Part shown: one piece after another, positions 45,004 through 46,586 of the stretch
Layout: the number at the start of each line of letters is the position of its first letter
Position numbering within the stretch: the first letter of the stretch is position 1
Source: Escherichia coli
GTDB lineage: Bacteria > Pseudomonadota > Gammaproteobacteria > Enterobacterales > Enterobacteriaceae
Reading direction: 5' to 3' (one strand)
DNA length: 64,000 nucleotides
Assembly: GCF_003334765.1 (NCBI RefSeq)
Contig: NZ_QOWT01000008.1
Notes under the pieces: generated by a model
Told to the model about the DNA's origin: nothing
Database searches by the model: none
The model's input: only the letters and a program-made list of their open reading frames with translations
Position numbers and translations under genes: made by a program

Positions 45004-45780
45004 ATGTCCGAAACAAAAAACGAACTTGAAGACCTGCTGGAAAAAGCAGCAACTGAACCGGCGCACCGCCCGGCCTTTTTCCGTACTCTACTGGAATCCA
45101 CCGTCTGGGTGCCTGGTACGGCGGCGCAGGGCGAGGCTGTGGTTGAAGATAGCGCGCTTGATTTACAGCACTGGGAAAAAGAAGACGGCACCAGCGTCAT
45201 TCCTTTTTTCACCTCGTTAGAAGCACTTCAACAGGCGGTTGAAGACGAACAGGCATTTGTCGTAATGCCCGTTCGCACGCTGTTTGAGATGACACTTGGC
45301 GAAACGCTCTTCCTTAATGCCAAACTGCCAACCGGTAAAGAATTTATGCCGCGTGAAATCAGTTTGTTGATTGGTGAAGAGGGAAATCCGCTGAGCAGCC
45401 AGGAAATCCTGGAAGGCGGTGAATCGCTGATATTATCGGAAGTCGCAGAGCCGCCAGCACAAATGATTGATTCACTCACCACCTTATTTAAAACCATTAA
45501 GCCGGTGAAGCGTGCTTTTATTTGTTCAATTAAAGAGAACGAAGAGGCACAGCCTAATTTACTTATTGGCATTGAAGCCGATGGTGATATCGAAGAAATT
45601 ATTCAGGCGACGGGAAGTGTAGCGACCGATACATTACCTGGCGATGAACCAATCGATATTTGTCAGGTGAAAAAAGGGGAAAAAGGAATTAGCCACTTTA
45701 TTACCGAACATATTGCGCCATTCTATGAACGTCGCTGGGGTGGTTTTTTGCGTGACTTTAAACAGAATCGGATAATCTAA
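45004..45780 (+). CDS. sseB: SseB (enhanced serine sensitivity protein B)
   Basis: ORF 44995..45780, start MSETKNELEDLL at 45004, 258 aa. Confidence 0.85.
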   Translation: MSETKNELEDLLEKAATEPAHRPAFFRTLLESTVWVPGTAAQGEAVVEDSALDLQHWEKEDGTSVIPFFTSLEALQQAVEDEQAFVVMPVRTLFEMTLGETLFLNAKLPTGKEFMPREISLLIGEEGNPLSSQEILEGGESLILSEVAEPPAQMIDSLTTLFKTIKPVKRAFICSIKENEEAQPNLLIGIEADGDIEEIIQATGSVATDTLPGDEPIDICQVKKGEKGISHFITEHIAPFYERRWGGFLRDFKQNRII

Positions 45781-45783
45781 AAT

Positions 45784-45804
45784 ATGCCGCCCAAAGGGCG
45801 GCAT
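45784..45804. terminator. bidirectional hairpin terminator at sseB 3' end
   Basis: atgccgccc-aaa-gggcggcat; U-rich tract on the minus strand (atttta) and weaker on plus. Confidence 0.55.
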
Positions 45805-45813
45805 TCGGGCTTA

Positions 45814-45936
45814 CTTGCTGCTCTGAAGGTTGTTAACCACCAGTAAATTGTCGCCGGAGAGACTCCGGTTATTATTTACCTCGGTTAACAGCGCACCAGA
45901 AACAATAAGTACGATACAAAAGCACCGTATCTTCAT
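45814..45936 (-). CDS. candidate small ORF, 40 aa (MKIRCFCIVLIVSGALLTEVNNNRSLSGDNLLVVNNLQSSK), hydrophobic N-terminal segment
   Basis: ATG 24 nt downstream of the 24-aa ORF stop, preceded by hairpin tgcggtc...gaccgca, no clear SD; inside putative RyfA-like transcript. Confidence 0.3.
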
Positions 45937-45960
45937 TGTGCGGTCCATGCGAAGACCGCA

Positions 45961-46035
45961 TCACGACAGCACCACTGGCGATATTGCCGCGATAGCAAGC
46001 GCTGTGAAACACCTGCATTTACGGCCACGGAACAT
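45961..46035 (-). CDS. candidate small ORF, 24 aa (MFRGRKCRCFTALAIAAISPVVLS), basic N-terminus then hydrophobic tail
   Basis: ATG preceded by AGGAAAGG Shine-Dalgarno; inside putative RyfA-like transcript; not in the 60-aa-minimum ORF track. Confidence 0.3.
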   Translation of the reverse strand: MFRGRKCRCFTALAIAAISPVVLS

Positions 46036-46160
46036 CCTTTCCTAAAGCCAGCGCCCGTTTGCGAGACGGCGGAAAGGGCCGCAGTGGATAATACACTAAC
46101 AGAACAATAATAACTCTCTTTTGCTTGACAAAAAGAGAGTTACTGGCGAGTATTGTCTCC

Positions 46161-46258
46161 GCTGAGACGCGCTTGCATTACTACGGTAATACAACCTGCT
46201 GGAAAGGCCGCGAACCGGACCAGCAACAAAAAACCGCCTGATTTTGGCGGTTTTTTGT
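46161..46258 (+). ncRNA. candidate short sRNA from module A (about 100 nt)
   Basis: perfect -35 TTGACA (46125-46130), 17-bp spacer, weak -10 gagtat (46148-46153), intrinsic terminator 46229-46258; promoter block conserved in module B. Confidence 0.25.
46229..46258. terminator. bidirectional rho-independent terminator (module A)
   Basis: aaaaaaccgcc-tgatttt-ggcggtttttt with U-tracts on both strands. Confidence 0.6.
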
Positions 46259-46481
46259 TTTTTAAAGGAAAGTGAATTTACATGTTTAAGTAATATCTTT
46301 TACCGGTTAGAATTTTTAATTTTGAGCAGGATTTGTTTATATTTGTCTGAATTCGGACTAATAAGCCAGGTTATTTTATTACCGAACACGGCGGAAAGGG
46401 CCGGTGTCGATAATACGCTAAATAAACAATAATTACTCTCTTTTGCTTGACAAAAAGAGAGTTACTGGTGAGTATTGTTTT

Positions 46482-46586
46482 GCTGTGAAGCACCTGCGTT
46501 GCTCATGTAACACAAGTCAACCTGCTGGAAAGGCCGCGAACCAGACTAGCAATAAAAAACCGCCAAATTCGGCGGTTTTTTATTGC
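46482..46586 (+). ncRNA. candidate short sRNA from module B (about 105 nt), sibling of module A sRNA
   Basis: TTGACA (46447-46452), 17-bp spacer, gagtat (46470-46475), terminator 46553-46586 (shared with sseA on the other strand). Confidence 0.25.
46553..46586. terminator. bidirectional rho-independent terminator (module B; also terminates sseA)
   Basis: aaaaaaccgcc-aaattc-ggcggtttttt. Confidence 0.6.

Follow-up and report, generated by a model that had tools for sequence, protein, structure and literature searches.

Two predicted TimR-type antitoxin small RNA genes, one of them unannotated, beside a single intact timP toxin gene at the sseB-sseA locus of Escherichia coli

A stretch of 64,000 nt from Escherichia coli contig NZ_QOWT01000008.1 (assembly GCF_003334765.1), called the window throughout, contains the sseB-timP(ryfA)-sseA region in the local order pepB, sseB (plus strand), timP/ryfA (minus strand) and sseA (minus strand). 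The 1001 bp around the sequence of interest are 100% identical to E. coli strain H3 and 99.8% identical to K-12, and positions are converted as window = 2699937 − MG1655 coordinate. The timP mRNA (ryfA, b4440; K-12 annotation, and a full-length match to Rfam RF00126 at 314.9 bits) occupies 45779–46082 on the minus strand and codes for a small inner membrane protein of 41 amino acids that is toxic (coding sequence 45811–45936, minus strand, annotated by RefSeq in MG1655 and in window-identical strains). Here we report that two small RNA (sRNA) genes lie beside it on the plus strand. One (module 1, 46161–46258) is unannotated and diverges from intact timP, with 79 bp between the starts; the other (module 2, 46482–46583) is timR (b4811) and diverges from IS128, a timP stub. 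Their sequences and predicted structures indicate that both RNAs are paralogous TimR/RyfB antitoxin sRNAs of the timP (ryfA) type I system, and that the module-1 RNA is a bona fide member of this family.

A first-pass annotation of this DNA, made from the sequence alone, had proposed two plus-strand sRNAs of ~100 nt with starts close to 46161 and 46482, whose 5′ halves diverge and whose 3′ half is common to both. This proposal is borne out by the timR annotation, by covariance-model matches and by 3′ ends at 46258 and 46583 in excerpts of a published Term-seq dataset. MG1655 timR is annotated at 2653356–2653455 (window 46482–46581), its 5′ end falling precisely at G46482 and coinciding to the nucleotide with the proposed start. 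Taken with the predicted starts, the 3′ ends in those excerpts give lengths of 98 nt (module 1) and 102 nt (module 2). The 3′ halves and terminators form a 64-nt repeat (46192–46255 and 46518–46581) that is 84% identical, and the 5′ halves are ~68% identical with a 5-nt indel. The seeds, ‘m1’ (GCUGAGACGCGCUUGC) in module 1 and ‘m2’ (GCUGUGAAGCACCUGC) in module 2, are unlike at 10 of 31 aligned positions besides the indel, and each favours a different timP allele. The description of the pair as sibling sRNAs stands insofar as they are paralogs with a variable 5′ half and a common 3′ half; they belong to the known TimR/RyfB family and share no seed, and since the seeds differ they are not siblings in the OmrA/B sense. 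OmrA/OmrB and Qrr1-4 are likewise paralogous sRNAs with one conserved and one variable half, but there the seed is conserved and the regulons overlap, whereas here the seed varies and the structural 3′ body is conserved.

RNAalifold, applied to 16 aligned homologs (E. coli, E. whittamii, Citrobacter, Salmonella diarizonae and Superficieibacter), yielded a consensus in which a single-stranded seed is followed by stem-loop 1, a second stem-loop whose loop is invariant, and a terminator. Both RNAs of the window conform to this fold, and compensatory changes occur at 8 pairs of the alignment, including A-U pairs peculiar to the module-1 type. Minimum free energy folds end in terminal hairpins of 13 bp (module 1) and 11 bp (module 2) followed by U runs, the terminators lying at 46225–46259 and 46549–46586. 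A covariance model built from the same homologs, which span four genera, has just two full-length matches in the window, scoring 107.3 bits for module 1 and 98.2 bits for module 2; because both RNAs are in the training alignment these scores are partly circular and chiefly show that there are no further copies, and the homology of both RNAs to TimR is evident from the alignment itself. The first ~60 nt of the module-1 sRNA are identical to the sole TimR of m1-lineage strains. Rfam holds no TimR family and returned sub-threshold, terminator-driven matches only (rimP leader, RNAI, AgrB, ohsC, OrzO-P), and the module-1 RNA is absent from the MG1655 annotation and unmentioned in the literature searched.

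The promoters proposed earlier, TTGACA and GAGTAT 17 bp apart with an intrinsic terminator ~100 nt on, are present in both modules. In module 1 (46125–46153, plus strand) TTGACA lies at 46125–46130 and GAGTAT at 46148–46153, with G46161 7 nt further downstream; in module 2 (46447–46475, plus strand) they lie at 46447–46452 and 46470–46475, followed by G46482. The −35 and −10 hexamers are identical between modules and one spacer base is different. A consensus promoter scanner omitted both promoters because GAGTAT fits TATAAT at 3 of 6 positions. We compared 80 sseB-linked loci, taken from one genome per species, together with further E. coli strains, and every timR-bearing lineage has TTGAC(A/T), exactly 17 bp, (G/C)AnTAT and then 6–7 nt to the seed. 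Four E. coli seed types share this architecture with Citrobacter, Salmonella diarizonae and Superficieibacter despite differing spacer and upstream sequence, so that comparative support for the predicted promoter and start site is strong. The stretch from −10 to +1 is TGTCTCC in module 1 (46154–46160; 7 nt, 4 G/C) versus TGTTTT in module 2 (46476–46481; 6 nt, 1 G/C), and this could give the two promoters a distinct response to guanosine tetraphosphate (ppGpp)/DksA or to supercoiling.

Expression of both copies is consistent with Term-seq of MG1655 (Adams et al. 2021), here in excerpts of its supplement. A 3′ end at 2653679 on the K-12 minus strand (window 46258) was recorded in all three growth conditions, with scores of 107037, 48011 and 208460, an intrinsic-terminator score of 4.1 and no Rho dependence, and was labelled merely ‘antisense IS128’. 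The annotated timR 3′ end at 2653354 (window 46583) was recorded in one condition with a score of 34005. Because these ends are compared on the same strand and scale, the unannotated module-1 copy has the stronger signal in the excerpts. Where the third supplementary table is excerpted, its inclusion rule implies a mapped transcription start site (TSS) between the sseB stop codon and the 46258 end. The excerpts also place the timP mRNA's 3′ end at K-12 2654157 (window 45780) and contain none for IS128.

The predicted TimR binding site in the timP 5′ untranslated region (46001–46019, minus strand; mRNA nt 64–82) and both sRNA 5′ ends make up one direct-repeat family, D3. The site includes the ‘variable region’ TGTTT of Fris et al. 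and lies >60 nt 5′ of the timP start codon, the same position as in Salmonella. Its match to the sRNA 5′ end is 89% for module 2 and 74% for the adjacent module 1. Both sRNAs are predicted to form the duplex envisaged in the first-pass annotation, in which the minus-strand RNA takes part through its 5′ region: seeds of 20 nt paired with leader nt 41–100 give −35.4 kcal/mol for module 2 and −24.0 kcal/mol for module 1, and seeds of 35–38 nt against full ryfA give 19 contiguous pairs at −44.4 kcal/mol for module 2 and an interrupted duplex at −32.3 kcal/mol for module 1. The 5′ end is thus complementary to the resident timP leader in module 2 and partly so in module 1, whose seed has only chance-level 3-mismatch matches elsewhere in the window. 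On the target of strain NCCP15648 the module-1 seed is predicted to reach −35.9 kcal/mol, ~11 stronger than on the window target. Single-module strains have a perfect seed/target match inside each lineage, and each seed prefers its own lineage's target: m1 with a CGCGT-type target in the NCCP15648 lineage, m2 with TGTTT in CFT073 and m3 with CACCC in O157:H7, types that correspond to the variable-region classes of Fris et al. The predicted duplexes support the module-2 RNA alone as cognate for this genome's timP. A minor 3′ end within ryfA at window 45997 (K-12 2653940, plus strand in K-12; one condition, score 857, in the Term-seq excerpts) lies 5 nt beyond the binding site and could be a TimR-guided cleavage or pause product.

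Site-by-site comparison accounts for this arrangement. The window equals NCCP15648 over 46059–46159 (timP 5′ end, promoters and palindrome), continuing as the m1 sRNA, and equals CFT073 over 45862–46027 (timP coding start and target site). It is therefore a mosaic with a breakpoint at 46028–46058, inside the timP leader, and this recombination breakpoint explains the cross-wiring, in which the leader is matched to the distal sRNA. Module 2 (46388–46583) is CFT073-like. Its divergent partner IS128 (46214–46422, minus strand; Rfam RF00125 at 262 bits, and alignment with ryfA) is the remnant of a second timP gene that has kept only the first ~20 nt of the leader, joined to 120 bp of unrelated AT-rich sequence. 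IS128 and the module-1 sRNA overlap perfectly over 46 nt at their 3′ ends because they share a bidirectional terminator in opposite directions. An old microarray sRNA candidate, C0614 (EcoCyc G0-8907; ~46399–46485), spans the module-2 promoter and the TimR 5′ end; C0614, IS128, ryfA and timR are four partly overlapping historical names in one 800-bp intergenic region.

Both sRNA promoters are embedded in inverted repeats. Palindrome 1 (46111–46142) has arms at 46111–46122 (TAACTCTCTTTT) and 46131–46142 (AAAAGAGAGTTA) complementary at 12 of 12 positions, an 8-nt loop (GCTTGACA) holding the TTGACA hexamer, and a symmetry continued by the outer arms ACAATA (46104–46109) and TATTGT (46151–46156). 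Palindrome 2 (46433–46464; arms 46433–46444, TTACTCTCTTTT, and 46453–46464) pairs at 11 of 12 positions, 10 of them contiguous; the 12-bp repeat originally quoted for both modules is thus complete in module 1 and one pair short in module 2. Chance origin of the promoter pair and palindromes was ruled out: TTGACA-N17-GAGTAT occurs twice in the window against 0.01 expected, the 28-nt core of the palindrome is found twice where 0 are expected with up to 3 mismatches allowed, and the 53-nt region folded as single-stranded DNA gives −10.1 and −8.8 kcal/mol (z = −4.7 and −3.8). A repetitive extragenic palindromic (REP)-type or mobile repeat was also rejected, as the palindrome is at just these two sites in 64 kb. 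The two copies belong to a 91-nt direct repeat (46066–46156 and 46388–46478, 90% identical) that runs over ~17 nt at the start of the timP leader, the promoter region between the genes, and the palindrome, and because they are paralogous their agreement is no independent evidence of conservation.

Read on the minus strand the palindrome loop gives TTGTCA, which with TATTGT 16 bp off makes a consensus-like promoter (46104–46131, found by consensus scan) whose −35 overlaps the timR −35 by 5 bp. These hexamers were attributed to ryfA in a published sigma-70 peak from genomic SELEX (systematic evolution of ligands by exponential enrichment), and are probably the source of the computational IS128 5′ end. 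A second candidate for the timP −10, read from the sequence, is TATTAT at 46088–46093 (minus strand), 6 nt upstream of the annotated ryfA +1 at 46082, and is retained at that position in the E. coli, Citrobacter and Salmonella loci. The annotated starts of timP (46082) and the sRNA (46161) flank the palindrome, which is therefore untranscribed DNA present in neither RNA. The palindrome has one clear consequence: a single 7-bp stretch contains two opposed −35-like hexamers, TTGACA and TTGTCA. Should TTGTCA be in use, one −35 segment would serve both divergent promoters, which would compete for it, binding of RNA polymerase in one direction excluding binding in the other.

The palindrome had also been called conserved. 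Within E. coli it was copied by duplication and is present in the m1 type (K-12 module 1, NCCP15648, ECE204) and the m2 type (K-12 module 2, CFT073), and E. whittamii has it in degenerate form. Other timR promoters lack it while retaining the −35, spacer and −10. These are the O157:H7, NCCP14541 and SCPM E. coli promoters, that of the second ECE204 module, and every Citrobacter, Salmonella and Superficieibacter promoter; their spacer and upstream sequence are simply different. Arm substitutions number 2 in CFT073, 1 in K-12 module 2, 1 in ECE204 and 2 in E. whittamii, and none is compensated. On this comparison the palindrome appears as a lineage-specific symmetry of the divergent promoter region and not as a conserved functional element of the family. 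The second module of E. coli ECE204 (L004, 1003–1126) is itself of a different kind: it keeps TTGACA-17-GAGTAT, has no palindrome and no timP stub, and carries a fourth seed type (ACGAGAUACACUUGCAG) that pairs poorly (~−15 kcal/mol or weaker) with every timP leader tested.

The locus is present in all 5426 complete E. coli genomes. At ≥99% identity to the 1001-bp query, 1516 genomes have the two-module form; 335 fall at 95–99%, about 3000 at 90–95% (the 676-bp single-module form) and 527 at 80–90% (the O157-like type). By these bands K-12-type two-module strains are roughly one quarter to one third of complete E. coli genomes, and an earlier survey found IS128 variable, with phylogroups B2+D, E and B1 scored as having lost it. 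Across the 5426 genomes the 217-nt timP body is matched at 5605 places, up to 3 per genome, so that a few per cent of E. coli carry more than one; these genomes possibly have a Shigella dysenteriae-like tandem arrangement, and among 60 rows sampled of the 5605 places we found no E. coli genome with two complete timP genes. Elsewhere timR has outlived its toxin gene: in Citrobacter werkmanii (L012, 3275–3482), C. braakii (L014, 1048–1244) and Superficieibacter sp. 1612 (L053, 3275–3471) the TimR promoter and fold are intact and timP is reduced to the left terminator half and the first few nt. The persistence of such orphans suggests that TimR roles beyond timP are possible.

Other rearrangements were seen at these loci. 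The leader target and the TimR seed read alike on one DNA strand and therefore form a ~20-bp direct repeat, ~160 bp apart. The interval between them is deleted in Salmonella arizonae (L023, 3475–3591), Citrobacter amalonaticus (L021, 3475–3597) and E. coli 06-00048 (L006, 1790–1890), where the timP 3′ part is joined straight to the TimR body and both promoters are gone. This looks like deletion that has recurred through seed-target recombination; gene conversion across the repeat could also keep seed and target matching. The IS3-family element ISEcB1 lies inside the terminator-hairpin loop of the cognate (module-2 or sseA-proximal) TimR gene in BL21(DE3) (L003, ~1665–1672) and in L006 (~1885–1942), leaving the antitoxin sRNA of BL21(DE3) without its normal terminator. 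In E. whittamii (L009, 3256–3430), ~160 bp of extra sequence containing AGGAGCTTACATAAGTAAGTGACTGGGGTGAGCG separate sseB from the timP terminator; we take them to resemble an enterobacterial repetitive intergenic consensus/intergenic repeat unit (ERIC/IRU) element.

In Salmonella, TimR (formerly STnc2070) blocks translation through pairing of its 5′ end to the timP leader at a site >60 nt upstream of the ribosome-binding site; it destabilises a leader pseudoknot needed for timP initiation, represses TimP synthesis and counteracts toxicity. Identity, fold, promoter conservation, complementarity and the mosaic were computed here, and the expression data and the Salmonella mechanism are taken from the literature. 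Based on these we consider it probable that the window holds two paralogous TimR/RyfB genes, each with a sigma-70 promoter and a terminator, that module 2 is the cognate antitoxin and module 1 mis-paired or orphan, and that the palindrome is lineage-specific. Each gene would be transcribed from its own TTGACA-17 bp-GAGTAT promoter and end at its own intrinsic terminator. By analogy with Salmonella, the first 19 nt of the module-2 RNA would pair with timP leader nt 64–82 and prevent the pseudoknot required for timP translation. The module-1 RNA adjoins timP, bears the seed of another E. coli lineage and may pair only imperfectly, and would thus be mis-paired or orphan though expressed, a functional status that we infer, as we do the role of the palindrome. 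Recombination would have combined a CFT073-like timP body and target with a NCCP15648-like timP 5′ end, both promoters and the adjacent sRNA, the second timP in module 2 having been reduced to the IS128 stub.

Several points weigh against parts of this reading. No K-12 TSS at the expected coordinates, and so none matching a start at 46161, was found in the Cappable-seq and SMRT-Cappable-seq supplements, and a full-text literature search for such coordinates returned unrelated papers only. The K-12 annotation words its entry as a ‘putative small regulatory RNA TimR’, and timP in E. coli may be driven either by TATTAT with a +1 at 46082 or by TTGTCA-16-TATTGT. Read-through from sseB could contribute part of the Term-seq signal at 46258. 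That the signal is mainly pepB-sseB read-through antisense to timP, with the module-1 promoter weak or silent, is nonetheless improbable: the hairpin after sseB (45784–45804) has no plus-strand U run and the Term-seq excerpts show no separate sseB 3′ end, but the module-1 −35 and −10 equal those of module 2 throughout, the same promoter and seed make up the sole timR of m1-lineage strains, and the supplement rule, as excerpted, implies that a TSS lies past the sseB stop and before this 3′ end. Module 1 is still predicted to form a substantial, if broken, duplex with the leader of the resident timP (−24 to −32 kcal/mol), so it may not be functionally orphan. It might work as an additional antitoxin against that timP, forming a redundant double lock, or have other trans targets, which we regard as a tentative possibility, the weaker one. 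Consistent with it are the intact consensus promoter and conserved fold, a signal above that of the cognate copy in the Term-seq excerpts, the persistence of TimR without timP in C. werkmanii, C. braakii and Superficieibacter sp. 1612, and the published TimR phenotypes of avian pathogenic E. coli (APEC) in the absence of RyfA. Against it, the pairing is broken by 2 mismatches plus wobble pairs in the first 13 nt, the window offers the seed no other good match, and overproduction of S. dysenteriae RyfB1 lowered RyfA1 and not RyfA2, from which the variable region is taken to confer specificity.

The palindrome raises a further objection, since a perfect 12-bp palindrome over a promoter core is typical of operators, and a lineage-specific regulator would be compatible with its absence elsewhere. 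The first-pass annotation had offered a repressor operator as its alternative, and a dimeric transcription factor that sat across the timR −35, its spacer and the timP upstream region, co-regulating timR and timP in the palindrome-bearing E. coli lineages, would fit arms that are perfect, 8 bp apart, centred on the −35, far above chance and nearly intact in the m1 and m2 lineages. We think such an operator unlikely: outside those lineages the promoter is conserved and the position and sequence of the palindrome are not, and the arm substitutions are uncompensated. C. werkmanii and C. braakii do have significant 6–8-bp inverted repeats of their own inside the timR spacer, and they stand out (P = 0.002 and P = 0.02) when 14 timR promoter variants are examined for covariation of a short inverted repeat in which the −10's first bases pair with a segment upstream; a recurrent repeat of this kind was dropped as not robust, the combined P being 0.03 for the 10 more distinct variants. 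The operator reading thus has no comparative support across the aligned promoters, and we know of no operator consensus that the palindrome matches. A role of the palindrome in RNA is very improbable; in that case minus-strand transcripts reading through from sseA or IS128 would form a weak back-up terminator or hairpin there, and the timP promoter would be insulated. A scanner marks both copies as minus-strand terminator-like, each with a T-rich tail, but they have 3 G-C pairs only, are not conserved in lineages of the same gene order, and have a strong bidirectional terminator already upstream of each. A joint reading, that module 1 was orphaned by the leader recombination and retained for another role while the shared palindromic −35 serves as a lineage-specific toxin/antitoxin promoter toggle, seems to us quite doubtful. 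If true, the module-1 RNA may neutralise incoming m1-type timP alleles (anti-addiction immunity), act as a back-up lock or regulate other mRNAs, and toxin-ward and antitoxin-ward transcription would be mutually exclusive in these E. coli lineages.

Divergent, trans-pairing paralogous antitoxin sRNAs with discriminating seeds are also found in the E. coli type I systems AgrA/AgrB-dinQ and OrzO/OrzP-ZorO/ZorP, and the dinQ toxin is repressed by one of the two sRNAs only. The homology of AgrA/AgrB and OrzO/OrzP to the RNAs studied here is limited to terminator-like hairpins, and their toxin and translational control are different. TimR/TimP of Salmonella enterica and E. coli (formerly STnc2070/RyfA) agrees with the present locus in its sseB-sseA position, divergent ~100-nt sRNA, leader pairing, fold and promoter; it differs in that here two timR-type genes accompany one timP, the cognate one 400 bp off beside a timP stub and the adjacent one non-cognate. 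The closest described precedent for two copies is RyfB1/RyfB2 of S. dysenteriae (Fris et al. 2017), ~100-nt transcripts divergent from each of two tandem ryfA genes. The tandem modules, the sRNAs that differ in their complement to the ryfA variable region and the partner-specific regulation are alike, but S. dysenteriae has two full ryfA genes, whereas here the second is IS128 and the remaining timP is recombinant and matched to the distal sRNA.

The kind of system is therefore already known, and the unannotated paralog is a new member of it. What appears to be undescribed in the literature searched is a second, unannotated TimR paralog expressed in K-12-type strains, together with a distal cognate timR and a recombinant arrangement. 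The interest is modest and lies mainly with researchers on type I toxin-antitoxin systems and on the annotation of E. coli sRNAs. Mechanistic work on timPR is active, and studies are connecting ryfA and timR with virulence in uropathogenic E. coli (UPEC), APEC and Shigella; where ‘timR’ is deleted or overexpressed in K-12-type strains both copies need accounting for. For the family, the locus illustrates the diversification of antitoxin specificity: in E. coli the seed types number at least four, each fits the target found in its own lineage, and recombination shuffles these seed types, with orphan antitoxins left over.

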